NCBI GenBank assembly: GCA_045863295.1
Contig: BTWA01000008.1
Coordinates: 144,384 to 208,383 of the forward strand
DNA: 64,000 bases
Direction of reading: 5' to 3'
Source: Candidatus Hydrogenedentota bacterium
GTDB taxonomy: Bacteria; Hydrogenedentota; Hydrogenedentia; Hydrogenedentales; SLHB01
A model generated the notes under the pieces. That model saw only the letters and a program-made list of their open reading frames with translations. It was not told where the DNA came from and made no database searches. Shown here in pieces: positions 3,001 to 18,188 of this stretch; position 1 is the stretch's first letter; each line of letters begins with the position of its first letter. Both the position numbers and the translations under genes were made by a program.

Positions 3001-6000
3001 CCGTCGGCGGGGGCCGTCCATCGCCACCAGATGGAATCATTCCGTTGGCCGTAGACGTAGTCGGGTTCACCGTCTTCCCCGGTTGCACCTTCTGCATTGA
3101 CGACGGATTGCGCCGTTGCCCCGGAGAGCTGGATGGCATTGGCAAAGTTATCGTTGGGTGGCGGCGGCATTTCAGACCAGTTCAGCACTATGGCGCCGAC
3201 GCTGGTCCCGTAGTAGTCCTTGCTCACCCGAATGAAGTAGGTGATTCCCGACACGACATCGACAGTGACACGGCTTGCAGGCTCGGGGCGAGACGTAGAG
3301 CTTATGGGCAATTCCGTCAGTCTATCTACCGATTCTCCGGAATAGACTTCCAGAAGAGTTCCAAACTCGCTGCCTTCTGTCGTAAACGTGTACTCTCGCG
3401 TTAACGGGGCCGTCCATCGCCACCAAATAGAATAGTTGGAACTGGAGTACGTTGGTTCGTTCCATTCCGTCGTTGCACCCAGGTTGGTACTGCTGGACTG
3501 TCCATTTGATCCGGTTATGACTATGGCGTCTTCAAATAAATCGTTTACAGGCGCGTTTGCACTCGACCAGTTCAACCGAAAATTGCCTATCGCCGCATTG
3601 AAACCATCAATTGCGATAAAATAGGTGGTACCTTCCACCGCGGCAAACGTAGCCTCGCTGATTCCTACGGTGTTCGAACCTCGATTATCGTTTGCGGCGA
3701 TTTGAGTCAGGGCGTCGACAGACTCGCCGGTGTAAATCGCAAGCAGAGTGTCAAAGTTGCTGCCAGTCGTATTAAACGTGACACTAGCGCTTTCGGGAGC
3801 GGTCCACTTACGCCAGACAGAACGTCCGCCGGCATTCCCTGCGTGGTTGGGTTCGCCCGTCTCTTTAGACGCATTCAAGTTTGCGCCGGAGGTCACACCC
3901 TGTAATCCACTCACGGACGTGGCGCTCGCGAAGTCGTCGCCAGTAGACACGACAGTCAGTGCCCAATCCAAAGAGACGCCGCCTCTCGCATCGTCGTAGC
4001 CATCCACGGCAATGTAGTAGGTTTGTCCTTGCTGTGCGGTAAATGCTACTCGGCTGGTATAGTTGCTTCCAAAGTGGGCATTGTCATTTGACGCCAAGAG
4101 CGAAAGATTATCAACAGAACTGCCGGTATATACGGCAAGCAGGGTGTCAAAGTTGGTGGAGATCGTGTAGAACGAGTAATCGCCGTCGGACGGCGCAACC
4201 CAACTCCACCAGACAGAACGTCCGCCCGCATTGCCCGCGTGATCAGGCTCACCCGGTTCCTTGGTGGCGCTGTAATTCGTGGCGTATGCGTTGCCCGAAG
4301 CACCTGAGATGCCAATAGCGTCGGCGAAATTGTCGTTGGCCCTGCGCCATCGCAGCGTGGGAATACCCGATGCGCCATCGCGTCCGTCGACGGCGATGAA
4401 GTACGTTGTGCCTGTCTGGGCATCAAATGTCAATTCGCTTCTATTATTGGCGGAATTGTTTGCATTATCGTTCGACGCAATTTCGCTGAGACTATCTACG
4501 GACGCTCCTGTGTAGACTGCGAGAAGTGTGTCAAAATAGCTTCCGAATGTATCGAATAGCACCGGCATCGGCGCGCTCGGAGTCCATCGAAACCAGATGG
4601 ATCTTTCACCCGAATTCGCCGCATGGTCCGGCTCACCCGCCTGCTTGGTCGCGGATGCCGTCGACCGCGTTATACTCCCAGACTCGCCGGAGATTTCTAC
4701 CGCATCGTCGTAGTGGTCGTTGGACGGGCGCCAATTCAGATACAAGGGTGAATTGTACCAGGATGAAACCAAGTCGACAGCTATCCAGTATTCCGTGCCT
4801 GCGTTTGCGTCGAATGTTACCTCGCTTTCGTAAGATCCGTTGTACGCATTGTTGTTCGAAGTGACTGGGGTCAAAGCATCCACCGACGAGCCGGTATAGA
4901 CTGCAAGCAACGTATCGTCGTAGGTTCCAAAGGTATCGAACGTGATCCGAACCGGCGTCGCGGAAGCCCAACGCCACCAAAGCGACTTACCACCGGGATG
5001 GCCGGCATGATCGGGTTCACCGGTTTCTTTAGTCGCGTAGTAGTTGTATTGTGAAGTGTTTCCTGCACTCCCTTGCAATGGCTGTGCATTGCCAAAATCG
5101 TCATTGTAGAGCGACCAGTTCAGTGTAAAGGCGCCGCCACTCCCACTGTACCGATCAAGTGCGATGAAGTACGTCGTACCGGCCACGGCATTGAGAAAAA
5201 GACGGCTGCTGCCATATGAAGAAGCAATGGCGGACAAATCATTCACGTCGGTTCCTGTATAAACGGCCAGTAGAGTCGTGAACGTAGAACCAACGGTGTC
5301 AAATACAAACGTAGAGTCTGAAGGCGCCTCCCAACGCCACCATACCGAGCGGCCGCCGCTGTATCCCGCATGGTTGGGCTCTCCTGCTTGCTTTGTTGCC
5401 AACGCATTCGACCCAGTCGTTTGGCCCGTCGCTCCTGTAAGGCTGATGGCGTTCGCGAAGTCGTCGTTCTCCGGCGGAGTATTGGCAAACCATTTCAGCG
5501 TGATGGATCCCTGACTTGTTCCTGGGCCGTCAACGGCGATGTAGTAGGTGGTGCCAGTCGTTGCGTTGAAAATGATTTGGCTCTGCAAACCAACTGCGTC
5601 GTCGTTTGCCCCAACACTGACCAGTGAATCCAGTGCGGAGCCTGTGTAAGCGGCTAGAATCGTGTTAAAGCTGCTGCCCTCGGTATTGAAAATGCATTCA
5701 CCTGTAAACGGTGATGTCCATTTCCACCACGCAGATTGTGATCCTTCAGACCCGAAATGGAATGGCTCGCCCGCTTGCCTGGTCGCGGAGATATTGGAAC
5801 CCGAAATCTGTCCCGTGCTGCCGGTAATTTCGATGGCGTCGGCGAAGTTGTCATTTGCTGGCGGAGATTGTTGAAGCCAATTGAGGACAATGCTTCCTTG
5901 GTTCGACCCGTAGCCGTCCACCGCAATGTAATAGGTCGTACCGGATACCGCCAGAAAACTGATTGCACTTTGGGTGCCTGGGCCGCTGTCATCGTCGTTG

Positions 6001-6428
6001 TCCATAAGCGTGTAATCTTCGATGGACGTTCCGGTGTATGCGGCGAGAATGGTGTCGAAATTGCTCCCCGCGGTATCGAACACGACTAGACCGCTAGCCG
6101 GAGCGGTCCACTGCCACCAGACTGAGCGACCGCCGGTGCTGCTCCAATGGAAAGGCTCGCCCACTTCGAAGGTCGCGTTTACGTTGGTGCCGGTGGTTTG
6201 ACCGTTGCCGCCCACAAGGATCAGGGCTGCTGCAAGGTTGTCGTTTACGGGGGCTTGGGCACGCGCGATTGCACAGGAAAGCGCGGCAACAAAGACCAGC
6301 GCCAATTTCCGAAGCCAATTCAGAGATGTTGCCGCACGGAACCCGTTCCCGTACGGTGACGGGTCCGCACTTGGCTGGATTGTAGTGTCTTTACGCCTAC
6401 TGCAACCGTCGATGCGGAGTCTGGACAT
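1..6428 (-). CDS. Giant secreted multidomain protein (>2140 aa, 3' end outside window): 9 PPC-like beta repeats, NHL-repeat propellers, C13/legumain-like (clan CD) cysteine peptidase domain, start of a second C13-like domain
   Basis: Manual translation of representative segments from ATG at 6428: MSRLRIDG...KLALVFVAALSCAIARA-QAPVNDNLAAA. No stop was met in the segments read, and the ORF track has no terminated ORF in this frame. NHL motifs GIAVDSDGNVYVADTDNHRV and GMATDSSHSLYIADSNNFRVQKY. Peptidase motifs RAVLVLGGGPYEGNRLW, YLVDHG (His at 888-890) and VYDACESGSF (Cys at 762-764). Confidence 0.9.
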   Translation of the reverse strand, partial: MSRLRIDGCSRRKDTTIQPSADPSPYGNGFRAATSLNWLRKLALVFVAALSCAIARAQAPVNDNLAAALILVGGNGQTTGTNVNATFEVGEPFHWSSTGGRSVWWQWTAPASGLVVFDTAGSNFDTILAAYTGTSIEDYTLMDNDDDSGPGTQSAISFLAVSGTTYYIAVDGYGSNQGSIVLNWLQQSPPANDNFADAIEITGSTGQISGSNISATRQAGEPFHFGSEGSQSAWWKWTSPFTGECIFNTEGSSFNTILAAYTGSALDSLVSVGANDDAVGLQSQIIFNATTGTTYYIAVDGPGTSQGSITLKWFANTPPENDDFANAISLTGATGQTTGSNALATKQAGEPNHAGYSGGRSVWWRWEAPSDSTFVFDTVGSTFTTLLAVYTGTDVNDLSAIASSYGSSRLFLNAVAGTTYFIALDRYSGSGGAFTLNWSLYNDDFGNAQPLQGSAGNTSQYNYYATKETGEPDHAGHPGGKSLWWRWASATPVRITFDTFGTYDDTLLAVYTGSSVDALTPVTSNNNAYNGSYESEVTFDANAGTEYWIAVDLVSSWYNSPLYLNWRPSNDHYDDAVEISGESGSITRSTASATKQAGEPDHAANSGERSIWFRWTPSAPMPVLFDTFGSYFDTLLAVYTGASVDSLSEIASNDNANNSANNRSELTFDAQTGTTYFIAVDGRDGASGIPTLRWRRANDNFADAIGISGASGNAYATNYSATKEPGEPDHAGNAGGRSVWWSWVAPSDGDYSFYTISTNFDTLLAVYTGSSVDNLSLLASNDNAHFGSNYTSRVAFTAQQGQTYYIAVDGYDDARGGVSLDWALTVVSTGDDFASATSVSGLQGVTSGANLNASKETGEPNHAGNAGGRSVWRKWTAPESASVTFNTTGSNFDTLLAIYTGESVDALTQIAANDNRGSNTVGISEATFAAVEGTTYFIAIDGFNAAIGNFRLNWSSANAPVNDLFEDAIVITGSNGQSSSTNLGATTEWNEPTYSSSNYSIWWRWTAPLTREYTFTTEGSEFGTLLEVYSGESVDRLTELPISSTSRPEPASRVTVDVVSGITYFIRVSKDYYGTSVGAIVLNWSEMPPPPNDNFANAIQLSGATAQSVVNAEGATGEDGEPDYVYGQRNDSIWWRWTAPADGQVEVNTYGSQYSTLISIVTGNALGGLTVIAQGITIVGFQAIQGETYYIVVDNSDGYVTLNLYGPIDPSSILYEFDRMWPDTPTGGTAYSPSARGIAVDSDGNVYVADTDNHRVVKTDSSGRFLLTWGKYGFDEGEFLGPVDIAVTNQGIVIVADSFHVRLFDRNGAFLTRYVNLQGTAVAGGPDGSGFGIFAGGLIYRANTTDVLAYWAGSGTDIAVGPDGTVYVISGTAIQRFDGVGAPYSSWNVPTTGTLVAVSTHADGSVWVMDNLGVIRKLDNAGNVVLTWNAFGYQFTDMTVDSAGSVYVLGDSQAVQKYHENGTFKKEWGKGGVLPGRFRKPLGVAVASDNSLYVADSENWRIQRRDSTSGIWTSFGTQGTGEGEFDALVDVAITSGGHLFAADNGNDCIQRFDLNGSFQDTWTVSRELVAVSAGPDDTVYAIYSDGFEVFDGVTGALLDEWGEVGYGPAQVYALADVAVLDDGSFYALDAGRRRVIKIAANGDFEFSWGSLWYSSTGTTGYGRFEAPAGLAVTSDGSVFVSDVGGHRIQRFDANGGFLEAFGSYGFDLGQFDTPRGMATDSSHSLYIADSNNFRVQKYRRAQAPLPEPDINRAVLVLGGGPYEGNRLWSATTSAASSAFKAMTQQGIVRTAIYTVSPVINLSLDGDATHDIDAWATNTEVEFSLTQKAIEPVNGEAVDNVVVYLVDHGAPGKFRLNESNEILSESDLATWLNTIQDNISGTLVIVYDACESGSFLESLSLPQYAGRRIIITSTRIEKAANFVANGLLSFSTFFWMQILNGDSVGAAFDRAEQAMTWSGQNPRMDANGNDIDNEQADFDIANAVFIGKGTDRHWEEPDIGNYDPDHSIVGVSESIIWADNIEDEDGIESVWAIVTPPTYSAFFSTMAIIDRARVDMLLQPDGSYEGIYDQFVQEGAYKVDIFALDSNGNTAGPYTTTVHVGAPPTRKAIIVNSADPASPDWDSYDWASKWAYSALTIQTYAPN
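2820..6255 (-). repeat. Nine tandem intragenic ~125-aa repeats (PxNDxFAxA...SVWWxWTAP...FDTxLAxYTG...YYIAVDG), PPC-like
   Basis: Units begin near 6252, 5865, 5477, 5110, 4728, 4343, 3945, 3552 and 3168, a period of about 370-400 bp. They are diverged at DNA level and the last unit is degenerate. Confidence 0.85.
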
Positions 6429-6527
6429 GTCTTACCTGACTTCCCTTCTCCCCACGACGATATATTGCCTATGGTTCATTCGGTTTTCGCCGCACCTTGG
6501 CAAATCTCGAATGTCGAAAATCTAACG

Positions 6528-6745
6528 ATCGGGATGTTTGCTGCTGATGCCGTCAGCCCGCGAACATCCCGATTGTGTACACCCGCTGTGGGTGCAAAAC
6601 GTGTCATGCTCTCTTAAGTGGAGAGTATGGCTGTACCAATCCTGAGCCCGCGCCGCGTCAAATTCGCCGCATGAATCCATCCTTTCCGCTGTCTCCCAGC
6701 CCCGCATTTCTCACCGCGCCAGCGAACGGCGCAGTGAGAAACGGG
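6528..6745 (-). other. Long structured 5' leader with four stem-loops
   Basis: Inverted repeats at 6707-6741 (14 bp), 6603-6631 (11 bp), 6578-6596 (7 bp) and 6528-6573 (11-bp perfect base plus inner stem). They lie between the sigma54 promoter and the ATG at 6428. Confidence 0.55.
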
Positions 6746-6790
6746 AACTCACCCCAAGGCCCCATCCCGGCCAAGTGCTGAGTAGTAAAG

Positions 6791-6806
6791 GCAATTGGCG
6801 TGCCAA
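6791..6806 (-). promoter_or_regulatory. sigma54 (-24/-12) promoter of the giant peptidase gene
   Basis: Minus strand TTGGCACGCCAATTGC, an exact match to TGGCAC-N5-TTGC. Intergenic and correctly oriented. Confidence 0.85.
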
Positions 6807-6899
6807 TCGGCAGGAAATCTCGACACATTCATAAGTCATTGCCCCTATTTTGGTTACAAAAAGCCAAGATGTATGCCAACCTGCAATCTCATGTGAACC

Positions 6900-6937
6900 T
6901 GTTCAGTTTCTGGACTGGATGTGTTCAACTATTGAAC
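6900..6937. promoter_or_regulatory. Tandem palindromic upstream activator sites (putative bEBP enhancer)
   Basis: TGTTCAGTTTCTGGAC and TGTTCAACTATTGAAC, 22 bp apart, 95 bp upstream of the sigma54 box. The same motif and spacing recur at 11214-11251. Confidence 0.75.
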
Positions 6938-7024
6938 TTTTTGGGTCTGAGGTATAGGAAATGGGCAGGAAGACCACACTATTTGCTCGAACTCCTCACC
7001 GTAGAACTAACAACCGCTGTGTGG

Positions 7025-10000
7025 TCACGTGGGTAAGGGAATTCCAATCCAGGTGGCCGATGTGAGCCGTTTTATCCACCCGAAAGTGCCCCTGTTGTTT
7101 CCGGCCCAGACCGGAACGGCGCGTAAGAGAAGTTCGTTCAAGCGGTCGATTGGTATTTGACCAAAACCGGCGCACGCGAGTGACTCTTGAAGTCCTGGCA
7201 GATCTTCTTTAGTCCAGTTGGGACTGCCTTCGCGCGAAAATGCGCGCGAAATCTCGTCGGGCGTGGCCAACCGGTCACGAGAAAGTGTGATACTGGCCGG
7301 CACGTGGCATTCAAAGAAGGTATTCAAGAGCGTTTCGGCACGTTCAAGCGGCATGCGGGCGGCAAGCGTGTAGTCCATTTGCCACAGTCGCAATCTTCCT
7401 GAAGTCGAACCTGCCACGGCGTGACTTCCGTTGCGGGTAAAGCAAACGGAGGTTTGGGGATCTCCCGGCGCGTTAAATACGGCGGTCATTTTCCCGGTAC
7501 GTGCGTCCCAAATGCGGATATCTCCACCTTCCTCCGCGGCGACTGCGTACTTGGAATCGTAGCTCAGGGCGAGTTTGTTGACATTGCCGGTTTCACCTTC
7601 GAACACGCGAGCACATGCCCATGTGCACAGATTCCAAAGGCGCAGGTCGGCCTGCTGACTCCATAGATGCCCACCGGCGGACATCATGTACCGGCCATCT
7701 CCGCTGATTGAAAGCGATCGGATTTTACCCTTGCCACCCGACAATACGCGCACGCAGTCTCCGGTGGCAGGCGAGTACACGCGGATGGCGCCGTCGGAAC
7801 AGCCCACGAGGAGGTACTTGCCGTCGGGCGTCCAGACCAGGCAGTCGGACTCGACCGATGTGCTTGTGATGGCAATGAGGCATTGCGATGTAGCGAGATC
7901 CCAGATGCACAAGTCAATTCCACCGATGGCGGCAAACCGCGGATCGGGACTCATGCAAATCGCTTCAATCTGTGCCAACGCCGAGTTGCCGGCTATCGTC
8001 CTGATGCGACGCCCGGATCTTAGCTCCCACAGGCGCACGGTTCCATCCGAGCTTCCGGAAAGGAGAAAGCGCCCGTTGGATGCAGAACACAAGCAGGTTA
8101 TGCGATCGGAATGCCCGTGTAATTCCACGATCATACGTTGCTCAAGCACATCCCAAACCGCGATTTTTCCGTCTTCACCACCGGTCGCCAGAATACGTCC
8201 ATCCCCTACCGTGGCCATGCTGGTAATGGCGCCTGCGTGTTGTTCGAGGTCCGCATACTCCCAGCACCCCACGGAATCAAGGCGTGGAAGTTTGGTGTAG
8301 AGTTCGGTCCAGACACGCATGGCTGAATTGTTTCGTTCGTACCCTTTGACTTCGCGTGCCAGCCTGGCCTCTTGCCAAGCGCGTTCCCACTCCGAATCAG
8401 CCATGGCTGATTTGACATTCGCAAGGTGTTTTTCAAAGGTAACCTGATTGGTAATGGCATCTTCGCTGCTAACGGCATGGGAAAGCATTAGCGGGGCAGG
8501 TCGAGGGTTAAGGTCTTTGGATACGCGCCAAGAGAACAGGTTTCCGGACTCGTCGCCCGAAAGGGCATACATGCCCTTTATGCACAGGTCAACGCTCGTA
8601 ACGGGATCCTTGTGCCCCTCTAACGTGCAAAGGCAACGGCCGCTGCTTGTTTCCCATAGGCGTAATGCGCCGTCCGCCGATCCTGAGACCAATACTCGTG
8701 CATCAATGGAAAGGGCAATACTTTTGACGGGTTTCTGTCCGTATTGGAATGTCCTGACACATTCGACGGTATTGAGATCCCATAGTTTTATTTGACCGTC
8801 CACACCGGACGAAGCGAGATATCGCCCGGAAGCGCACACCGACAAACCAGTTACATGGCATTCGTGCGCCAAAAAGGAAAGTGTGGTTTCTTCGGACTTC
8901 AGATCCCAGATTCGGACACTTCCGTCAATACTGCCTGAGATCACGATTCCCAATTCAGGTTGAAATGACATGCAATTCACGGATCCTCGATGACCGCGGA
9001 GTACAGTGGCTCCGGAGACGCCTTCCACCCGCCAAAACCGCAATGCCGCGTCTTCGTGGCCCGAGACTATTATGTTTCTCGTTGTGGACAAGGCGACACA
9101 CGAAACCGTGCCGCCTTTGCCGTCCATGTCGCGAATGCATTCAGCGCGGCCAATATCCCACAGGCGTACCGTGCCATCGACGCAACCAGACAAGGCCACA
9201 GTACCGTGCCTGGACAGATAGACGGACGCAACGGACTTTCGGTGACCTTTGAGCTTTCGCACACAATTTCCGGTCTTCAAATCCCACAGCTTGACGGTAT
9301 TGTCTTTGCTTCCCGAAAGCGCATACCGGCCGTTTCGACTGATTCGCGCACTGCTGACGCCGTCACGGTGCGCGGCGATAATTCGCTGTAATCCGCGACC
9401 TTCGTCTTTTGCGGCCTCCCAGGTTTCACGCAAATACCGTGAGGCTTCGTCGTGAGATTCTCCTGTACTCTTGAATTCGCTCAACGCCGACGAGTAGTCT
9501 CCGCGTTCCGCATGAATCATCGGCAGGACTTTGTTGACCAGTTGCCGGCCATTTTCCGAGTTTCGGACGGGATGTAGCAGATCGATCAGGTCGGTATCGG
9601 AGATTGCGCCCTTGCGCCATCGTAGTAGCCCCAGGTTGTATGTGGATTCCGCGTGCCCAGGAGCGACAAGCAAGGCTTTTTTCCACTGTTCAATGGCCTT
9701 GTCGTGTTTGCCTAGGTCCATTAGGGAGACGGCCCTGTTATTCATTCCGGTCGGAGGGTGAGTTACATCCGGGGGTTGAGCTAGCGGAAAGGCCTCATCC
9801 GCGACATCCTGGTACAATTCCTTCAGTGCCTCTGCAGGCTCCAGTATGCTTGCTGGCCTGCTTCGTACTTCGTCCTGACAACAGTGCCAGAGGACTTCAA
9901 ACAGTCTTGCCGGGACAAGTGGAAGCAATGGGCCCGGTCGCTGACCCCGAATGCATTTTTCAATTGCCGTGCGGCCATCCGGCCCGTGCTTCCACATACG

Positions 10001-10855
10001 AGCGCCGCACAACATTTCGAATACGCACAATGCCCAACTCCAAATATCCGTTGCAGGAGTAAGGGGATGAACTAGCGCTTGTTCCGGGGAACAGTATCCG
10101 GGGGACATGCCGTAAATGGACATTTCCGCACTGTCGGTCTGGCTTTCCATTTCCTCCAGTTGGGAGAACGCTTTCGCAAGGCCAAAGTCAGTGACCTTGG
10201 CGGCGCCTTCTTTGGTGAGCAATACGTTACCGGGCTTGACATCAGCATGTATCAAGCCCTTTTTGTGTGCAAACGAGAGCCCCCAAGCGAGCTGAATGGC
10301 AATGCGCAATATGCGCGCGAGGCAATCCGGACTCTCATAGAGCGATTTCGAGCGGACCGCCTGTTGCAGCGTGCCTCCTGGAACCAGTTCGGCAAAAATA
10401 CGGGGCACACCGCCAAGTACGCGAACGTAGTAGCAGGTGGCCACTTGTGGATGCAGCCCGAGGTGGACCCAGTGCTCGCATTCGTGTTTGAACGCGCGCG
10501 ACCGGTGTTTGTCTTTAAAGAAGCTTGCAAGTGGACTCTTTACTGCCAGCATGGTATCCCACTGGCGATGATAGACGGCATAGACCTGTCCCATTCCCCC
10601 TTTGCCAAGAACATCCCTGACTTCATAGGTATTCAGGATCAAATCTCCAACTTGCCACTCCACCTGACAGTCGAGAGGAGGGTCCGGAGAGCTTGGTTGC
10701 ATGGGACAGGAGCCGTGTACAACTGTATCCGCCACGGCTTCGTTCAATGGAAACGCATGGCCACATTGCGCACAGTTACCGCCCTTCTGAGGACCGCCCT
10801 CGGCGTCTGAAGCGGCGTAACCGCACGTTGGACAGGATTGGACCGGCTTGTTCAC
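7025..10855 (-). CDS. Ser/Thr protein kinase with N-terminal Zn ribbon, TPR and two WD40 propellers
   Basis: CPTC..CAQC; LGKGGMGQVY, AVK, HADVKPGN, DFG; TPR segment NNRAVSLMDLG; about 14 WD40 repeats (GH...WD). Start is probably GTG at 10855; the ORF is open to 11029. Confidence 0.92.
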   Translation of the reverse strand: MNKPVQSCPTCGYAASDAEGGPQKGGNCAQCGHAFPLNEAVADTVVHGSCPMQPSSPDPPLDCQVEWQVGDLILNTYEVRDVLGKGGMGQVYAVYHRQWDTMLAVKSPLASFFKDKHRSRAFKHECEHWVHLGLHPQVATCYYVRVLGGVPRIFAELVPGGTLQQAVRSKSLYESPDCLARILRIAIQLAWGLSFAHKKGLIHADVKPGNVLLTKEGAAKVTDFGLAKAFSQLEEMESQTDSAEMSIYGMSPGYCSPEQALVHPLTPATDIWSWALCVFEMLCGARMWKHGPDGRTAIEKCIRGQRPGPLLPLVPARLFEVLWHCCQDEVRSRPASILEPAEALKELYQDVADEAFPLAQPPDVTHPPTGMNNRAVSLMDLGKHDKAIEQWKKALLVAPGHAESTYNLGLLRWRKGAISDTDLIDLLHPVRNSENGRQLVNKVLPMIHAERGDYSSALSEFKSTGESHDEASRYLRETWEAAKDEGRGLQRIIAAHRDGVSSARISRNGRYALSGSKDNTVKLWDLKTGNCVRKLKGHRKSVASVYLSRHGTVALSGCVDGTVRLWDIGRAECIRDMDGKGGTVSCVALSTTRNIIVSGHEDAALRFWRVEGVSGATVLRGHRGSVNCMSFQPELGIVISGSIDGSVRIWDLKSEETTLSFLAHECHVTGLSVCASGRYLASSGVDGQIKLWDLNTVECVRTFQYGQKPVKSIALSIDARVLVSGSADGALRLWETSSGRCLCTLEGHKDPVTSVDLCIKGMYALSGDESGNLFSWRVSKDLNPRPAPLMLSHAVSSEDAITNQVTFEKHLANVKSAMADSEWERAWQEARLAREVKGYERNNSAMRVWTELYTKLPRLDSVGCWEYADLEQHAGAITSMATVGDGRILATGGEDGKIAVWDVLEQRMIVELHGHSDRITCLCSASNGRFLLSGSSDGTVRLWELRSGRRIRTIAGNSALAQIEAICMSPDPRFAAIGGIDLCIWDLATSQCLIAITSTSVESDCLVWTPDGKYLLVGCSDGAIRVYSPATGDCVRVLSGGKGKIRSLSISGDGRYMMSAGGHLWSQQADLRLWNLCTWACARVFEGETGNVNKLALSYDSKYAVAAEEGGDIRIWDARTGKMTAVFNAPGDPQTSVCFTRNGSHAVAGSTSGRLRLWQMDYTLAARMPLERAETLLNTFFECHVPASITLSRDRLATPDEISRAFSREGSPNWTKEDLPGLQESLACAGFGQIPIDRLNELLLRAVPVWAGNNRGTFGWIKRLTSATWIGIPLPT

Positions 10856-11010
10856 GCAGAATTCCCGCACCGATACGCGCCGTCGGGCCGGATACTGGGA
10901 TTGCGAAGTAACCTCTGCCTGTACAGAATCAAGGCCCGTGGGATGTTGGGCTGAGCCTGTTTGGATTCTTCCACGGTCACCGACGGGTATGGCTGCCAAG
11001 CTGCCGTCAA
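10852..11010 (-). CDS. Putative 52-aa leader ORF translationally coupled to the kinase
   Basis: AGGGAGG SD 7 nt before TTG at 11010. Translation MTAAWQPYPSVTVEESKQAQPNIPRALILYRQRLLRNPSIRPDGAYRCGNSA. Its TGA overlaps the kinase GTG (GTGA). Confidence 0.4.
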   Translation of the reverse strand: MTAAWQPYPSVTVEESKQAQPNIPRALILYRQRLLRNPSIRPDGAYRCGNSA

Positions 11011-11104
11011 AACGAATCCTCCCTATCACTTCTCAGCACGAATTAGGTCCACTTGAGATGGACGCCGTCTGGCGCACGACGGAAACCAATAGGCACAAGA
11101 AAGG

Positions 11105-11120
11105 GCAAATCCCGTGCCAA
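11105..11120 (-). promoter_or_regulatory. sigma54 (-24/-12) promoter of the kinase-WD40 gene
   Basis: Minus strand TTGGCACGGGATTTGC, an exact TGGCAC-N5-TTGC match. Confidence 0.85.
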
Positions 11121-11213
11121 TTCGGCCGATTGAGTCGTCACACTGTAAGTGCTTTTCAGTACAGAGCTTATCGCTTATAATGCCTATTGGCCTAAATGCA
11201 TTTATAGTAGTGC

Positions 11214-11251
11214 TGTTCACTTTCTGAACACTTCATGTCCAATAAATGGAC
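11214..11251. promoter_or_regulatory. Tandem palindromic upstream activator sites (putative bEBP enhancer)
   Basis: TGTTCACTTTCTGAAC and TGTCCAATAAATGGAC, 22 bp apart, 95 bp upstream of the sigma54 box. Confidence 0.75.
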
Positions 11252-11429
11252 GTGGAAGCGGTGTTCCATGCGCCCGCCGCACTCTTTAACTATGTGCGCT
11301 AATCGTGACGCCTGAACCCACAGCAACCGACGTCCACGAAGTGAATGGATCTGAATTGTCACGCCAAGAGCTCTTAATTCTCCAGTTGACAACTCGTCTC
11401 GATTCCACATTTTTTGTATAGTACTGCCC

Positions 11430-13619
11430 ATGGTGGTCAAAACTGGTGTAGACGGGCGAATCGGAAAGTACCGTATCGTTCGCGAACTGGGCCACGGCGG
11501 CATGGGGGTCGTTTACCTGTCGCAAGACGAGGATCTGGGCCGGCCTGTCGCGATCAAAGTGCTGCACTCGTCGATGAGCCTTGATCCGGACTTTCGCGGC
11601 CGCTTCCGTCAAGAGGCGCGGACGATCGCTTCTCTTGTCCATCCGCATATCGTACGTATTCATTCCTTTCTAGAAATCGACGATGTAATGGTAATCGAGA
11701 GCGAGTTCGTCGAGGGGGGGTCGTTAGCGGACGTAATGACGCAACGTGGCGTCACACCACATCAAGTGGCGCGGTTTGGCGTTGAGATGCTGGAAGCGTT
11801 GATATGTTGTCATGACTTGGGAATCGTTCATCGAGATGTGAAGCCGACTAATATATTGCTCGATAGGTACGGCAGGGCCTTGCTTGCGGATTTCGGCCTT
11901 GCAAAGATCTATTTCGATCACTTGGCGCAAGCCAACAAGAGTTCAAGCACGAGTCGACTTTTTCTTGGAACACCCCGTTATGCGGCTCCCGAAGCCTGGG
12001 ACGGTACGGAACCTTCTCCGTTGTGGGATTTGTATTCCCTGGGCATGGTTATGTACGAGGCAATCTCGGGACACTGTCCTTACGATGCTTCATCGCCGTT
12101 CGCCTTATTGAAGCAAATCATGGAGCGCAAGCCGGACCCGCTGCGGGAGGTGGCGCCACACGTATCGGTCGAACTGGGCGACTTGGTCGATTCCATGGTA
12201 TCGCGAGATCCGGCAAACAGGCCACAAACCGCTAGAGCGGCGCTTGAGACTTTGCGAAACACTCAAGAATATGGATCCGCACCCACGTCAAGTTCACCGA
12301 CGATTGTCCAGCCGAGGCCGCTCCGGCCGAGCACCATCGTGACGGCCGCGCACCGCGTGAGCGCAGCCTGGAAGCGGAATGCAACAGTGATTAGTGTGCT
12401 GTTGTTCGCTGCGCTTTGCCTGGCTGTTTCCATTCAGTTACGGTTGAAACCAGGAATGGATATGGGAGCCGACAAGCTGCCGCCTCCCGACTATCAGATC
12501 GATCTCGTACGAACAGGCATTCCAGAAGAAGAAAGCATTAACGCGTTTGCGCTTGGGCCGGCCTCTCAGTGGTTGGTCTTGGATTCGCTCGACCACGAGA
12601 CATTGGCCGCGCGATCCGGAAATTGGCTATTTAAGTTCGAGCCAGGGGGCAAACTTACCGCGGTTGTAATGGCAGACGAAGAATCGCTGTGCCGCCTTGA
12701 GGCATCTGAAGATACCGATCAAGCCGTCAAATTAGACGGCTTCTGGGCCGATTATCAGGGTCTTGCGGGGGCCGTGTACCGGCATGGGACGGCTTCCGGT
12801 ACCGGCCGCTGGAACGGGGATAGAACGTCATTCACCGCTCGGCTGGAATTCACCAACGAGCAAGATAACTCGAGGTGGGAAGAAGTATTGACCGGAACTG
12901 TCTCGCCAACTTGGACTGATACGGCGTTTCTGCTCCGCATGGAGGAACAACCCAATACCCACGCCTTGATCTACAATGAACTTGTGCCAAGGGGCAAGGA
13001 GTGGGCCGAACATCTGGAGCAATTGTTGCCCGCGATGTCCGGTATGCGCACTCAGGTTGCGATCTCGGCGGCAAACAGGCCTGACTTTCATCCAAACGGC
13101 ATGTTGGACGAAGTGTATTGGAATATGGAATCTCGAGCCCGCGACGGAGGAGTGCTTGCCGGTTATCCAATGAATGGCGCGTCGCACTTGATATTGCGAT
13201 TTGGCAATGACGGTGTCTATATTGCCGCCTATTGCCGCACAGGCGAAGGCGTGAAGTCTGAGTTTGAATGCCAGTTGACTGCGCGATATCGAGTATTCAT
13301 GGATCGCCAGCCGCGCGTGACGTTATTTCACAACTCCGACGGCGAGTCCCTGGTGGAACTGATGCCCGAGGGAGGACCTGTGGGAGACTCAGAATCCTGG
13401 GCACTTGGCGATGCCTATCATGACGGAGTCTGGACGGTCGAAGGATTCGTCGCCTACTCTATACTTGGGCTGACCGGGCCGCCCGAATCCGGCCATCGTA
13501 TTCGGACGAATGCCGTTATTCGCGCAGGCAAGGCATCGGACATTAAGGTGCCTGTGGCGCTTTGGGGTTACCCCGCGGTCGACCGCATAGAGCATGGCGC
13601 TATTATCGTCGTCCAATAA
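11430..13619 (+). CDS. Membrane-anchored Hanks-type Ser/Thr kinase with extracytoplasmic region ending in a CBM9/DOMON-like domain
   Basis: LGHGGMGVVY, VAIK, HRDVKPTN, DFG, GTPRYAAPE. TM helix VISVLLFAALCLAVSI. C-terminal NGMLDEVYW...NDGVYIA...WTVEGFVAYSILG pattern; the CBM9 call is tentative. Confidence 0.9.
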   Translation: MVVKTGVDGRIGKYRIVRELGHGGMGVVYLSQDEDLGRPVAIKVLHSSMSLDPDFRGRFRQEARTIASLVHPHIVRIHSFLEIDDVMVIESEFVEGGSLADVMTQRGVTPHQVARFGVEMLEALICCHDLGIVHRDVKPTNILLDRYGRALLADFGLAKIYFDHLAQANKSSSTSRLFLGTPRYAAPEAWDGTEPSPLWDLYSLGMVMYEAISGHCPYDASSPFALLKQIMERKPDPLREVAPHVSVELGDLVDSMVSRDPANRPQTARAALETLRNTQEYGSAPTSSSPTIVQPRPLRPSTIVTAAHRVSAAWKRNATVISVLLFAALCLAVSIQLRLKPGMDMGADKLPPPDYQIDLVRTGIPEEESINAFALGPASQWLVLDSLDHETLAARSGNWLFKFEPGGKLTAVVMADEESLCRLEASEDTDQAVKLDGFWADYQGLAGAVYRHGTASGTGRWNGDRTSFTARLEFTNEQDNSRWEEVLTGTVSPTWTDTAFLLRMEEQPNTHALIYNELVPRGKEWAEHLEQLLPAMSGMRTQVAISAANRPDFHPNGMLDEVYWNMESRARDGGVLAGYPMNGASHLILRFGNDGVYIAAYCRTGEGVKSEFECQLTARYRVFMDRQPRVTLFHNSDGESLVELMPEGGPVGDSESWALGDAYHDGVWTVEGFVAYSILGLTGPPESGHRIRTNAVIRAGKASDIKVPVALWGYPAVDRIEHGAIIVVQ

Positions 13620-13633
13620 GGACAACGGGGAGA

Positions 13634-15460
13634 GTGGCGTTGTACCAACTCACCGCACTAGCGGGCTTGACAAAAGGTGCGTCGTGGCAAATCACGGCCA
13701 AGCCCCTCGTCATTGGCAGAGACAACACGTGTGACATTTCGCTAGCGGATCCTTTGGTATCACGCCGGCATTGCGAACTCTCACTGGTCGGCGATTCGCC
13801 TTTCCTGCGGGATCTCAATAGCAGCAATACAACGCTGGTCAATGGTACGCCGACCAAAAGCGGCCTGCTTACTCTTGGCGATCAAATATGCATAGGCAAA
13901 GTCGTCTTTCTTGTAACGCAGCCGAACACTGTCCATTCGGCTGTTCCTGGACAGTTGGTCGAAGAGCAGACACAGACGCTTTCAGAGGCGGACGTTGTTT
14001 ACTTTGGAGATTCTAGCCGTCTTCGCCAGGTGCAAGGACCGCATACCATTGAGGATATGGTACTGCTGATCCGGCTTAACCGGACATTTAGTGAATGCGA
14101 CTCCGTTCCCTGCCTGATCCGGATGTTGGATCAATCGCTGAGAGAGCGTTTTTCCCCGCAACTATGCTGGATCATGACGCAAGAGGGCAGTTCTGGCGTG
14201 CGCACGCTTCATCCGACGCACACGTATTCGAATCAAAGTGAGAGTATTCCTGAGCATTTGATTGAACTTGTAATGCAGAGCCGTCAGGGATTGTTGGCTC
14301 CAAAGCGAATTCATCGCAAAAACGCAGTCGCATATCAGTTTTTCCTCGCCTCCCCCATCATCTGGCAGGATCAGATCACCGGCATAATCGTATTGATGTC
14401 GGATTCCCTTCATCGCATATATGACGAATCGGATTTGGAATTTCTCGTTGGCGTTACTCGAAGCATCGCCCCGGTCTTTCGTGCGCTCGAAAAGCGGGAA
14501 GAGTTGATGCGTGAAAACGAACGGCTTCAGGTGTCGCTTCATCATTCACTGGCGATCATTGGCAAGAGCAGCGCGCTCACCTCTGTTCGCACGCTGGCTT
14601 CGAAAGTCGCGCCTACGAACCAACCTGTTCTCATCGTTGGCGAGACCGGCACGGGCAAAGAACTGCTTGCACACATGATCCACAACTTGTCGCCCCGGTA
14701 TGATCGGGCGTTTGCCGTCGTGAATTGCGCAGCCATTCCGCGCGATTTGTTTGAAAGCCAATTCTTTGGACACGAGAAGGGATCGTTCACTGGTGCCGGG
14801 GCGCGCCACATAGGACTACTGGAGGAAAGCGATCAAGGCACCCTGTTTCTGGACGAAGTGGGCGACTTAAGTCTCGACAATCAGGCGAGAATCCTTCGCG
14901 CAGTGGAGACCGGGGTCTTTCGGCGGGTCGGCGGGAAGGAAGATATCCAATGCGACTTCCGGTTGATATCCGCGACCAACAAGAATCTTGACGAAGCGAC
15001 AAGAACTGGGTCGTTTCGCCCTGACTTGTACCATCGGTTGCGCGGCATCGAAATCAAGATACCGCCGTTGCGGGAACGCGCAGGGGATGTGCCGTTGCTT
15101 GTAGAACATTTTCTTGAGGAAGCGCGTGCGCGATTTTGCGGTGGGATCCAAGGCTTCTCCCGCGAATCAATGGAGAACCTGTGCAGCCGCGAGTGGCGTG
15201 GCAACGTGCGCGAACTTAAACAGACCGTCTTTTCGGCTGCCATTCTGGCCGATGGCCCGTTGATTGAAGTCGAACACCTGAATGTTTCCGACAAGTGGAC
15301 GGCCGACGACACGGTCCCATTAACCTTGGACGAAGCGGAAAAGCTGCACATTTCGCGCGTACTGGAAGTATGCAAGGGAAACGTCGTCGAGGCGGCCAAT
15401 CTTTTGAAAGTGAGCCGGACAACCCTTTACTCGAAGATGGACAAATATGGGTTGCGTTAA
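13634..15460 (+). CDS. sigma54-dependent enhancer-binding activator with FHA and GAF domains
   Basis: FHA motifs IGR, VSRRH, SSNTTLVNG; GAF region; AAA+ GETGTGKE, GSFTGA, LFLDEVG; Fis-type HTH VSRTTLYSKM. GTG start at 13634 after GGGGAG. Confidence 0.93.
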   Translation: MALYQLTALAGLTKGASWQITAKPLVIGRDNTCDISLADPLVSRRHCELSLVGDSPFLRDLNSSNTTLVNGTPTKSGLLTLGDQICIGKVVFLVTQPNTVHSAVPGQLVEEQTQTLSEADVVYFGDSSRLRQVQGPHTIEDMVLLIRLNRTFSECDSVPCLIRMLDQSLRERFSPQLCWIMTQEGSSGVRTLHPTHTYSNQSESIPEHLIELVMQSRQGLLAPKRIHRKNAVAYQFFLASPIIWQDQITGIIVLMSDSLHRIYDESDLEFLVGVTRSIAPVFRALEKREELMRENERLQVSLHHSLAIIGKSSALTSVRTLASKVAPTNQPVLIVGETGTGKELLAHMIHNLSPRYDRAFAVVNCAAIPRDLFESQFFGHEKGSFTGAGARHIGLLEESDQGTLFLDEVGDLSLDNQARILRAVETGVFRRVGGKEDIQCDFRLISATNKNLDEATRTGSFRPDLYHRLRGIEIKIPPLRERAGDVPLLVEHFLEEARARFCGGIQGFSRESMENLCSREWRGNVRELKQTVFSAAILADGPLIEVEHLNVSDKWTADDTVPLTLDEAEKLHISRVLEVCKGNVVEAANLLKVSRTTLYSKMDKYGLR

Positions 15461-15564
15461 CGCCCGAGTGTCGTGGCAGATGGCTTGTTCGCGCACCGGC
15501 CGGATGACTAAGTCGTAGTCTTGTCGCGCCTGTGCAAAGGAATCGCGGGAATTGAGGTGAATGC

Positions 15565-17745
15565 ATGCTCTTTCTGGAATGGCGTTCGGTCTACTCCGTT
15601 TCTGGTGCAATCCTTTTTCTGGGTTCCGCGCTCTGTTTCCAGCCCACAATAGCCCTTGCGCAAACGATACCGCCTGAATGGCAGAATCTTCATTCCGAGC
15701 CCATGGGCCTGAAGCATTGCGGTGACTTTGTCTACTTCAGCGCGGACGACGGAGTCCACGGCCGTGAACCATGGCGCACCGATGGGACGCCGGAGGGAAC
15801 GGTGATGATCGCCGATCTGCAATTGGGAAGTGAGGGTTCCAACCCCGAGAATTTCGTCGAAGCTGGCCGTTGGACGGTTTTTCTGGCCACCCGCGATTCG
15901 GCCCCCCTACTCTGGGTAACAGACGGGACGCCTGGAAACATATACACTGTGGAAGGCGAACCAGGCAGGGCAATTTGGTGTGAGCATGTGATTGGCGCTC
16001 CATTTGGAGTCCTGGGCCATGAAGTGTACTTTCCCTCCCGAAATAACTCTGTTCAGATGTCAATGTGGATATTCGATTTGAATTCCAGGTCTCTTCGCAG
16101 ATTTGAGAAGCCTTCCTTTCTACCAACCCAACTCGACTATCCAAAATACTTTGAATCGGCCGAAGATCGTATCTATTACGTATGGGGCCGCAATGACTAC
16201 CACGAAGGCCAACTCTTCACGCTGAATTCCGGTGGTGACCAAGTTTTGCTGACGTCGTCACTCGGGCCTAACGTTCGGTGCGTGTTGACGTGCGTGGGAG
16301 ATCGTCTCTATTTCGCGGCAAGCACCCCTGAAACTGGCATCGAAGTCTGGACTTGCGACGGAACGCCTTCGTCGACCCGTATCCTTCAGGATATTAATCC
16401 CGGACCCGGCGAAGCGCTTAGCGTCGTTCACCCCTACGGCGCAGCCTTGGGAGATTTACTTGTATTCAGAGCGAACGACGGCATTCATGGAGACGAAATA
16501 TGGGTGACCAACGGCACAAGCTCGGGGACGTTTATGCTTCGCGATGTGAACCCAGGATCTGGGTCTTCCAATTGCGGCATGCTGACGACCGTTGGAAGAC
16601 TCTGTTATTTTCAGGCCAACGATGGCATTTCGGGCGCGGAGTTATGGACGACCGACGGTACGCCGGAGGGTACGCGGCTGGTGAAAGATGTTTTCCCTGG
16701 GCCGCGCGGCAGCAATCCGTTCGGGTTGCTGGGTATTGGCGACAAACTATACTTTTCCGCGGAGGATCATCTTCGAGGAGGCGAGCTGTGGCAAAGCGAC
16801 GGTACCGCTGACGGAACCATGCCGGTGATCGATCTGGCGCCTGGAATTCAAGGAGGCTGGGCCAAACACAAGGCAGTGCTCAACGGCAAGATCCTTTTTG
16901 GGGCGGGCAATCCTTCTTATGGAGTCGAACTATGGTCCAGCGATGGCACAAGCCAGGGAACAACGATACTGAAGGACATTTGGCCCGTTCGCGGCCCAAA
17001 CCCATCTTCCAACCCAGACAAACTTATATCAGTCGGGAATCGGCTCTTCTTTGTCGTTAACGATGCAACTCATGGTGCGGAACTTTGGCAGAGCGATGGA
17101 ACCCACGAAGGCACGGGGCTGGTAAAGGACATCTTTCCTGGAGCTACAAGTTCCAGCCCGTCGCACTTCTGCGCATTTGAAGGACTACTCTACTTCCAAG
17201 CGGATGACGGTTCCCATGGAAGCGAATTGTGGTGCAGCGATGGCACCGACAAGGGCACACGTCTGTGCGTGGACTTACGTGAAGGCAGGGATTCCGCCAA
17301 TCCGCATTCCATTACCTCCGTTGGCGAACGACTTGCCTTTGTGGCGAATGATGGAGTCAGCGGATATGAGTTGTATCGATATCCCCCGGTAAACCTGTTC
17401 GATCGGCTACTGGTCAAGGACATTCGCGCCGGTAACGACGGATCCAACCCGAAGAATCTCACGGTTCATCAGGGTAAGCTGTATTTTGTCGCGGATGACG
17501 GTATTCATGGTCAGGAACTTTGGGTCAGCAATCTTGAACCGAGCGGAACCCATATCGTGCGAGACTTACTCCCACGGCCAAAAATGCAGAGCCAAGCGCA
17601 AGCGAGTACCATTCACTTAGACTCAGGATCCGCGGTTTTGAATAATTCTTTGTTTCTACTGGGAGACCAAGACGGTGCCCTGCCCGTGATCCTATCCCTC
17701 AAATCAAATGTCATGGAGACGTATACGGTCGGCGAAAATGAGTAA
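15565..17745 (+). CDS. Secreted ELWxxDGT-repeat protein
   Basis: Signal peptide and about 11 HGxELWxSDGT-type repeats. Confidence 0.9.
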   Translation: MLFLEWRSVYSVSGAILFLGSALCFQPTIALAQTIPPEWQNLHSEPMGLKHCGDFVYFSADDGVHGREPWRTDGTPEGTVMIADLQLGSEGSNPENFVEAGRWTVFLATRDSAPLLWVTDGTPGNIYTVEGEPGRAIWCEHVIGAPFGVLGHEVYFPSRNNSVQMSMWIFDLNSRSLRRFEKPSFLPTQLDYPKYFESAEDRIYYVWGRNDYHEGQLFTLNSGGDQVLLTSSLGPNVRCVLTCVGDRLYFAASTPETGIEVWTCDGTPSSTRILQDINPGPGEALSVVHPYGAALGDLLVFRANDGIHGDEIWVTNGTSSGTFMLRDVNPGSGSSNCGMLTTVGRLCYFQANDGISGAELWTTDGTPEGTRLVKDVFPGPRGSNPFGLLGIGDKLYFSAEDHLRGGELWQSDGTADGTMPVIDLAPGIQGGWAKHKAVLNGKILFGAGNPSYGVELWSSDGTSQGTTILKDIWPVRGPNPSSNPDKLISVGNRLFFVVNDATHGAELWQSDGTHEGTGLVKDIFPGATSSSPSHFCAFEGLLYFQADDGSHGSELWCSDGTDKGTRLCVDLREGRDSANPHSITSVGERLAFVANDGVSGYELYRYPPVNLFDRLLVKDIRAGNDGSNPKNLTVHQGKLYFVADDGIHGQELWVSNLEPSGTHIVRDLLPRPKMQSQAQASTIHLDSGSAVLNNSLFLLGDQDGALPVILSLKSNVMETYTVGENE

Positions 17746-17828
17746 GACGCGGCCGAAAGGCGCCTCACCGATGCTTAGACGCACTCGGCCCGCAAAGGCG
17801 AAGTCTCATACGAGAATGAAACCCGGCT

Positions 17829-18188
17829 TCAAAACCCCAGGCCCATGGCATCGAGTATTCGCGAGGCCAGCAACTCCGAAGTAAACGGTTTGACAACATA
17901 GTTGGCCGCGCCCATCTTTACCGCGCGCACGATATTGTGTTTCTCGCCTTCGGTAGTGACCATCACCACCGGTATTTGCCTGAAACGTTCGTCGTTTTGA
18001 ATAGCCTCTAGAGTCTGAAAGCCGTCCATTACTGGCATGTTCACATCCAACAAGATGAGTTGAATCTGCTCATAGGCATCCTGGAGCAGATCTAGTGCTT
18101 CTCTGCCATTGGCCGCTTCCATCAACTCATAGCCGAGAGCCTCGACGGTGCCTCCCACTATCTGTCGCATCACCGCGGAATCGTCAAC
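17829..18188 (-). pseudogene. CheY-like receiver protein, probably 5'-truncated
   Basis: Homology starts abruptly at VDDSAVMR. It retains LLDVNMP, VTT and VKPF, but the first beta strand is missing and there is no SD or ATG upstream (only a TTG giving TSNPQTC). Confidence 0.6.

Follow-up and report, generated by a model that had tools for sequence, protein, structure and literature searches.

We describe two intergenic promoters, P1 and P2, that carry the same arrangement of cis elements in a 64,000-nucleotide stretch of DNA from a Candidatus Hydrogenedentota bacterium (assembly GCA_045863295.1, contig BTWA01000008.1, positions 144,384 to 208,383; this whole stretch is the window). In each promoter, two dyads of the form TGTYCA-N5-TGRAC stand 22 bp apart upstream of a sigma54-type -24/-12 box, and an operon divergent from P2 encodes a receptor-type Ser/Thr kinase and a sigma54 enhancer-binding protein (EBP) that begins with an FHA domain. 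The best explanation of these observations, which we consider moderately probable, is that this FHA-type EBP, fed by a eukaryote-like protein kinase in place of a two-component system, runs a sigma54 regulon over the dyads. In the following, G000 is the genome of the window (6.34 Mb, 88 contigs) and C8 its contig.

P1 and P2 are both read on the minus strand. The P1 box, TTGGCAC-GCCAA-TTGC, is at 6806 to 6791 and the P2 box, TTGGCAC-GGGAT-TTGC, at 11120 to 11105, each an exact copy of the TTGGCAC-N5-TTGC motif that an initial annotation of the window had reported. Upstream of the boxes, and given here in plus-strand letters, lie the proximal dyads, TGTTCA-GTTTC-TGGAC(T) at 6900-6916 in P1 and TGTTCA-CTTTC-TGAACA at 11214-11230 in P2, and the distal dyads, TGTTCA-ACTAT-TGAAC(T) at 6922-6938 and TGTCCA-ATAAA-TGGAC(G) at 11236-11252, respectively. 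We found the same offsets in both promoters, as that annotation had claimed: a distance of 109 nt between the left box edge and the first position of the proximal dyad, a gap of 95 nt between the core of the proximal dyad and the T of TGG, and a step of 22 nt from dyad to dyad. When +1 is placed 12 nt below the -12 GC, the predicted start sites fall at 6779 (P1) and near 11093 (P2), and the dyad centres fall near -129 and -151 in both promoters. Over 167 aligned positions, the named elements are identical at 35 of 38, whereas only 40 of the 129 positions outside them agree (31%, against 25.5% expected from composition). Thus, P1 and P2 share elements and not sequence, and the earlier remark that they have little in common overall is correct.

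This architecture is real and non-random. Firstly, perfect GTYCA-N5-TGRAC sites number 35 in the genome and one-mismatch sites 800, and pairs with at most one mismatch in total occur four times at a spacing of 22 and at none of the 25 other spacings between 15 and 40. When two mismatches in total are allowed, there are six pairs at a spacing of 22 and 0-2 at the others. Secondly, the exact box TGGCAC-N5-TTGC is present 39 times, against 17 for the reversed control and 12-22 for other spacer lengths. Thirdly, the 150 nt upstream of the 424 boxes with at most one mismatch contain six perfect dyads, against an expectation of about 0.35 from the genome rate. P1 and P2 are only 4.3 kb apart, and it is therefore conceivable that a local duplication left a promoter relic, or that chance produced a likeness devoid of regulatory meaning; however, identity outside the elements is at background, the arrangement is found on three other contigs as well as in other genomes, and control patterns and other spacings give none, so that we regard this explanation as highly improbable. 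The genome scan suggested by the initial annotation indeed adds candidate sigma54 promoters with tandem dyads, one each on contigs C7, C18 and C28.

The same annotation had assigned a TAAGT element to each promoter. TAAGT is indeed placed alike in the two, at 41 nt from the left box edge (6832-6836 in P1 and, as ACTTA in promoter orientation, 11146-11150 in P2, both on the minus strand), but a role tied to a fixed position is not supported: by itself the coincidence is not significant, since a same-offset run of five arises in 1321 of 20,000 shuffles, and the distance to the box is variable (23-34 nt) when all promoters bearing ATGACTTATG or its ACTTA core are considered. ATGACTTATG is the 10-mer that contains TAAGT in P1 (6830-6839, minus strand). 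It has five copies in the genome, two of which sit between dyads and -24 box (P1 and the C18 promoter, at G000:C18:44450); it is also present, reversed, between dyad and box in a promoter of genome G032 (L037, G032:C212), and the ACTTA core alone is found in P2 and in genome G041. One possible role of ATGACTTATG is to bind a DNA-bending protein or a co-factor; three genes of the HU/IHF family are present in the genome.

The kinase-activator operon lies immediately beyond P2, whose dyads are 179-216 nt upstream of its first ATG, so that autoregulation is possible. The first gene (11430-13619, plus strand; 729 aa) encodes a receptor-type Hanks Ser/Thr kinase with a Pkinase domain at residues 14-268, in which the motifs VAIK, HRDVKPTN, DFG and APE are present, one predicted transmembrane helix at 319-337 and an ectodomain of 390 aa. 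The kinase looks active from these motifs, and its earlier description as a transmembrane Ser/Thr kinase stands. The ectodomain matches no Pfam family, and the one lead from an Atlas search is CBM9-like, with scores of 0.84 and a TM of about 0.45 that are below the search's own bars. The second gene (13634-15460, plus strand; 608 aa) encodes the EBP. Its start, first put at 13562, is more likely at 13634 or 13640, that is, 15-21 nt past the stop codon of the kinase gene, a distance that suggests co-translation and a single operon.

The domains of the EBP are those of a sigma54 activator without a receiver, in the order FHA-GAF-AAA+-HTH_8. The AAA+ domain is a Sigma54_activat match (PF00158, E 2.5e-62, residues 332-498 of the TTG-start frame) with GETGTGKE and LFLDEVG present; its sigma54-contact loop reads GSFTGA, one conservative change from GAFTGA, and the T, G and A of the loop are invariant in 22 homologues. 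An AAA lid and a C-terminal Fis-type helix-turn-helix (HTH; PF02954, HTH_8, E 6.8e-12) are also present. At the N-terminus, the FHA domain (PF00498, E 1.4e-17) has the residues for phosphothreonine (pThr) binding, G28, R29, S43, R44, H46, N65 and N70 (GR, SRRH, N), all of them invariant in the 22-homologue alignment. No Response_reg match is found among the nine Pfam families with a hit. The invariance of the pThr residues and the absence of a receiver make control by Ser/Thr phosphorylation the natural reading. Pfam thus agrees with the domain order proposed initially, FHA-GAF-AAA+(GSFTGA)-HTH, with a marginal match for GAF. As for the sigma factor, whose absence would have spoken against that proposal, an rpoN gene is found on contig C34 (Sigma54_DBD, 214.7 bits at G000:C34:27722-28195, in a 485-aa open frame). 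The EBP falls below the cut-offs of NifA (TIGR01817; 282.7 against 528.85 bits) and NtrC (TIGR01818; 278 against 558.6 bits), as well as below that of every other named equivalog.

In the mechanism that we propose, dimers of the EBP would bind the two 17-bp dyads, TGTYCA-N5-TGRACA, via the Fis-type HTH. The 22-bp step corresponds to two helical turns and would put both dimers, with centres near -129 and -151, on one face of the helix, where they would nucleate the AAA+ ring. The GSFTGA loop would then contact sigma54-polymerase some 100 nt away, waiting in a closed complex at TTGGCAC-N5-TTGC, and ATP hydrolysis would open the promoter. Control would be exerted through the N-terminal FHA domain, reading phosphothreonine written by a Hanks-type kinase, which is most likely the co-transcribed single-pass receptor kinase (11430-13619), and the GAF domain may add a second input. 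We infer that the window EBP is the protein on the dyads, and likewise that it is switched by pThr through a writer kinase that responds to a signal.

The candidate regulon comprises about five promoters in the genome: P1, P2 and those on C18, C7 and C28. P1 would drive a giant gene, whose 5' part occupies positions 3-6428 of the window on the minus strand; the initial annotation had seen only this part, and the gene in fact continues past the window start to G000:C8:138986 and encodes 3941 aa. Its product was proposed to be a giant secreted clan CD protease, which is upheld by a signal-peptide-like N-terminus and a C13-type (clan CD) peptidase region, next to PPC, NHL propeller and CarboxypepD_reg domains. 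The match to PF01650 scores 39.2 bits (cut-off 22.8) and spans profile positions 103-171 only. The region contains VDHG and DACESG, which we take to be the clan CD catalytic His/Cys dyad motifs, and the predicted dyad is intact. At the C-terminus, outside the window (L148 187-366, minus strand), a hydrophobic helix is followed by a basic tail, RNRRLSR; this presumably resembles an exosortase-type C-terminal sorting signal, and the sole match is a weak one to NCBIfam 'midcut-by-XrtH' (17 bits against a cut-off of 45). The predicted leader, from the inferred P1 start near 6779 to the ATG at 6428 (6429-6779, minus strand; 351 nt), is strongly structured, with a minimum free energy of -135.8 kcal/mol (z -3.0; 2 of 100 shuffles fold as well) and a perfect 16-bp hairpin about 40 nt past the expected start site, and matches no Rfam family. 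P2 would drive a kinase-WD40 gene (7025-11029, minus strand; 1334 aa) with a Pkinase domain at residues 135-392, in which HAD replaces HRD, about 14 WD40 repeats and a stretch resembling TPR; the protein lacks any predicted transmembrane helix.

These two genes are the outputs that had been named at the outset, and both are retained, but the set is larger. The C18:44532 pair (two mismatches) is 98 nt upstream of TGGCACTCGCGTTGC, and the three genes behind it encode an 875-aa Pkinase protein with a membrane helix and TPR, a Glucodextran_B/CsgG-matching protein and a FadL/TodX-type outer-membrane protein; the output set thus probably gains kinase-TPR, CsgG-like and FadL-like proteins. The C7:7568 pair (one mismatch) is 107 nt upstream of TGGCACAAAGATTGC, with RmlD-type and dehydratase-type sugar-nucleotide genes about 1 kb further on. 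The C28:28224 pair (one mismatch) is 66 nt upstream of TGGTAC-N5-CTGC, behind which are genes for two unknown proteins and a YfhO-like membrane protein. Outputs look like cell-surface functions together with two further kinases. A sixth pair in the scan, C73:5791 (two mismatches), was judged to be due to chance. A lone perfect dyad, TGTTCAGTAATTGAACA, is found outside the window, some 10 kb ahead of its start, 87 nt upstream of ATTGGCGCGCCGATTGCTCC (TGGCGC-N5-TTGC) at C8:134103 (134089-134207; L026 8090-8207). Activator homologues in G002, G063 and G065 are followed, 170-230 nt downstream, by boxes much like this one (TTGGCGCGCC-NN-TTGCTC), and an alignment of the stretch downstream of the C8:134103 promoter with the similar promoters beside homologues was uninformative.

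Is the window EBP the protein that reads the dyads? Among 25 sigma54-type AAA+ genes in the genome (E <=1e-20), its gene is the only one within 10 kb of a dyad pair, at 3.3 and 7.6 kb; the next nearest is 28 kb away. Alternatively, the dyads could be read by another DNA-binding protein, be it one of the 24 other sigma54 activators, a repressor or a co-regulator, while the window FHA-EBP acts elsewhere. Three of the five candidate promoters are distant from the EBP, the presence of the motif does not follow the EBP tree, and the HTH_8 recognition helices differ too little between paralogues to reveal specificity or to tie the motif to a subfamily. However, the distance from dyads to sigma54 boxes is fixed at 95-110 nt, a tandem spacing of two turns is what EBP sites typically show, all other activator genes are more than 10 kb from any pair, and dyad sites are found independently beside EBP homologues in G040 (two loci), G041, G035, G009 and G032. 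This alternative is, in our view, quite improbable. An FHA domain is apparent in three of the 25 genes (on C8, C3 and C23). The one on C3 is a second FHA-GAF activator (L025, G000:C3:5000-23000; 41% identity) with a Pkinase gene directly downstream. No GTYCA-N5-TGRAC is present within 9 kb of it, and it therefore probably uses another motif.

Comparison with other genomes supports the assignment of the dyads to the window EBP. We analysed the flanks of 21 EBP homologues, up to 9 kb either way (352 kb in all), and scanned 133 genomes across the order for tandem pairs with no more than one mismatch. The homologue loci contain seven perfect dyads, against about 1.9 expected at the G000 genome rate, and dyad sites stand beside the activator gene, upstream of sigma54-like boxes, in G040 (at two loci), G035, G009 and G032. 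The clearest case is G040:C118, in another family of the same order, where an EBP homologue (41% identical) is divergent to a 1450-aa Pkinase+WD40 gene. The intergene carries GTCCAGATTCTGGAC and GTCCGAATTCTGGAC, 22 bp apart, then a 95-nt gap and GGGTAC-GAGAA-TTGC; this is the geometry of P1 and P2, and the pair is 77 nt from the activator start codon. A second perfect pair of G040, 7 kb off, is followed by a 107-nt gap and TTGGCAT-N5-TTGC. G041 has a degenerate pair (spacing 23) with TGGCCC-N5-CTGC 1.2 kb upstream of its activator, a 1453-aa kinase-WD40 gene 3.4 kb upstream of it, and, on another contig (C127), a well-formed pair with a box. Gaps from dyad to box are hence 95 nt in P1, P2 and before the G040 kinase-WD40 gene, 98 nt in C18, 107 nt in C7 and the second G040 pair and 110 nt in G041:C127. 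In a maximum-likelihood tree of the 22 homologues, the window EBP groups with G040a, G041, G033b and G063 (support 96/97). Across the 133 genomes, the tandem pattern was found in six (four times in G000, twice in G040 and once each in G041, G079, G104 and G032), and the control pattern in none.

The best homologue in 54 same-family genomes is 38% identical and covers the N-terminal half, that among 41 relatives of the order is 45-46% identical, and a Hydrogenedentales homologue is 43% identical over its full length; all of the best 120 listed matches have a generic annotation. A wider search for loci with the 22-protein alignment was dominated by generic AAA+ patterns. Three of the 79 loci kept span the full query, and these (L069, L070 and L077) have no pair and no perfect dyad. 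The tandem pairs of G079, G104 and G032:C464 were rejected as EBP-linked, as no EBP homologue is present on the fetched contig pieces. On the 13.8-kb piece of G032:C464, we noticed three CGTTCA-N5-TG(A/C)A(T/C) sites at exact 22-bp steps (L067 9946-10005), which perhaps represent a simple repeat and not an enhancer. In G041, an 80-aa open reading frame (ORF; L046 7879-8121, G041:C2) lies between the degenerate pair with its box and the activator gene; its C-terminal stretch is Fis-type-HTH-like by eye and has no Pfam match. The gene that follows the EBP in G040 is dissimilar to the ELWxxDGT-repeat gene that follows it in the window.

Several observations weigh against a kinase-fed FHA-EBP regulon over the dyads. 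The proposed link between EBP and dyads is drawn from sequence, and the best of the 7134 proteins that pass E 1e-50 in a large protein library is 46% identical, so that there is no close orthologue for footprinting. Conservation of the motif beside related activators, which the initial annotation had put forward as a check, is found in part: the pair, the 22-bp step and the 95-nt gap are kept at the G040:C118 homologue, but motif-bearing loci do not cluster on the 22-protein tree (five changes; 277 of 500 shuffles are as low). The motif hence marks no single clade, and is either common to the wider family or a noisy label. G033b and G063, of the same clade, have no tandem pair in their genomes at up to one mismatch, and the kinase-WD40 gene of G041 has neither dyads nor a sigma54 box upstream. 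In only 6 of the 21 homologue loci is a kinase domain or the ectodomain encoded within about 9 kb of the activator gene. Identity among the kinase-WD40 proteins is just 23%, and a membrane helix predicted for those of G040 and G041 is absent from that of the window. The GAF match of the EBP is marginal (PF01590, 24.4 bits against a cut-off of 22.4, E 4.7e-5); GAF_2 or GAF appears in the precomputed Pfam lists of many homologues and is absent from the list of the window EBP itself. Lastly, the C28 box is weak for its sequence and its gap of 66 nt, and about 1 kb without a convincing ORF follows the C7 promoter (L022 7738-8880), a stretch that might serve as a long leader or encode a small protein or a non-coding RNA.

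A separate question is which kinase feeds the FHA domain, since the genome has 30 Pkinase and 11 FHA matches. In the predicted kinase-to-FHA step, the co-transcribed receptor kinase is the first candidate to write the FHA ligand. A predicted complex of receptor-kinase residues 1-330 with FHA residues 1-125 scored 0.27, for a mark of 0.32. Another explanation keeps the DNA side as it is and has the ligand written by a different kinase, chiefly the kinase-WD40 protein, itself an EBP target, in a positive feedback loop, or by another of the approximately 29 Hanks kinases, with the receptor kinase as a lineage-specific add-on. The kinase-WD40 protein is the main alternative candidate because it is a neighbour conserved within the clade, recurring in three of five members (G000, G040 and G041), and homologues of the receptor-kinase ectodomain are found in 2 of the 21 loci only (L037 and L039). 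On the other hand, the 15-21 nt that separate receptor kinase and EBP suggest co-translation of these two, and the low identity of the kinase-WD40 proteins, together with their difference in membrane helices, means that they may not be equivalent. We consider this explanation possible but rather unlikely.

A further reading, which we regard as unlikely and offer tentatively, does not take receptor kinase and EBP as the conserved core. The core would be a self-reinforcing pair of an FHA-EBP and a divergent kinase-WD40 gene with the tandem sites of that EBP in its sigma54 promoter; the kinase-WD40 protein would phosphorylate the FHA ligand, and the result would be a bistable kinase cascade that commits the cell to surface remodelling. 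If so, the remodelling state would consist of the giant clan CD peptidase, the CsgG-like and FadL-like proteins, the products of the sugar-nucleotide genes and the kinase-TPR protein, and the device would be a eukaryote-like commitment switch native to Candidatus Hydrogenedentes.

We also analysed the surroundings of these genes. The gene for an ELWxxDGT-repeat protein (15565-17745, plus strand; 726 aa; TIGR04534, E 1.4e-170), with an N-terminal hydrophobic segment, starts 105 nt downstream of the EBP gene. A sigma70-like site, TTTTCA-17-TATAAT (10 of 12 positions), lies at 11153-11181 on the plus strand, between the P2 box and the P2 dyads, and is oriented towards the kinase-activator operon; were it genuine, the bound activator would be just downstream of its start site. 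A sigma70 scan of 6300-17900 gave six sites for 7.4 expected and hence no support for sigma70 promoters. An Rfam search of 6300-11500 returned no match at E up to 1. In four DNA sequencing runs, the fragments over 6300-11500 were all identical, with zero differences; DNA of the organism is carried by runs from bioreactor and sludge metagenomes, and no RNA run containing it was listed.

Kinase-rich environmental bacteria commonly encode sigma54 activators of the FHA type, for which, to our knowledge, hardly any DNA sites, targets or partner kinases have been characterised. The present analysis yields one motif, TGTYCA-N5-TGRACA doubled at 22 bp, with a fixed geometry, about five candidate promoters and a syntenic copy in another family. 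It makes a route from a Ser/Thr kinase to sigma54 testable by heterologous reconstitution even though the host is uncultured, and offers an initial look at how regulation is wired in Candidatus Hydrogenedentes of wastewater systems. Our literature search, which did not extend to supplements, found no paper on FHA-EBPs in Hydrogenedentes, and a 2025 comparative paper on sigma54 regulons does not mention 'FHA' in its main text.

Among known systems, the nearest in domain content are the FHA-domain enhancer-binding proteins of Myxococcus xanthus, reportedly described by Jelsbak, Givskov and Kaiser in 2005 (PNAS 102:3010). These likewise have an N-terminal FHA domain in place of a receiver, which implies control by Ser/Thr phosphorylation. 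The EBP of the window differs from them in belonging to an uncultured Candidatus Hydrogenedentes bacterium, in having a GAF domain between FHA and AAA+, in being co-transcribed with a receptor-type kinase, in having kinases among its candidate targets and in that its enhancer motif is readable from sequence. NtrC-type sites are tandem 6-N5-6 dyads more than 100 nt upstream of -24/-12 promoters. NtrC at glnAp2, where the tandem dyads are 17 bp long, shares with the proposed system a Fis-type HTH, a 6-N5-6 dyad, two same-face sites more than 100 nt upstream and an AAA+ ring with a GAFTGA-type loop; it has an aspartyl-phosphate receiver where the window EBP has a pThr reader, its half-site is not TGTYCA, and the window EBP stays far below its equivalog cut-off. 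Activators of the NifA/FhlA type also have GAF before AAA+, and the dyad opens with TGT and closes with ACA like the NifA site; the latter is TGT-N10-ACA, whereas it is TGT-N11-ACA here, and the window EBP has an additional FHA domain and a score well short of the NifA cut-off. Pirellula sp. strain 1, the subject of an in-silico survey of sigma54 EBPs attributed to Studholme and Dixon in 2004, is similarly a kinase-rich environmental bacterium with many EBPs, some of which are said to contain FHA domains; it belongs to a different phylum, and we noted no comparable motif, regulon or synteny there. Finally, a study on Nla28 of M. xanthus describes an EBP regulon defined by tandem half-sites, the 8-bp CT(C/G)CG(C/G)AG, with support from electrophoretic mobility shift assays and reporters, and with other regulators among the targets, as in a cascade (PMC9765219). 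The window EBP resembles Nla28 in a putative regulon delineated by tandem short half-sites at sigma54 promoters and in the presence of regulators among the targets, and differs from it in that Nla28 is a response regulator with binding and reporter support, whereas our evidence is computational throughout. The FHA-EBP type of switch is thus already known, and what is new here is the lineage, the motif, the candidate target set with its two further kinases, the FHA-GAF form co-transcribed with a receptor kinase and the conserved divergent module with a kinase-WD40 gene.

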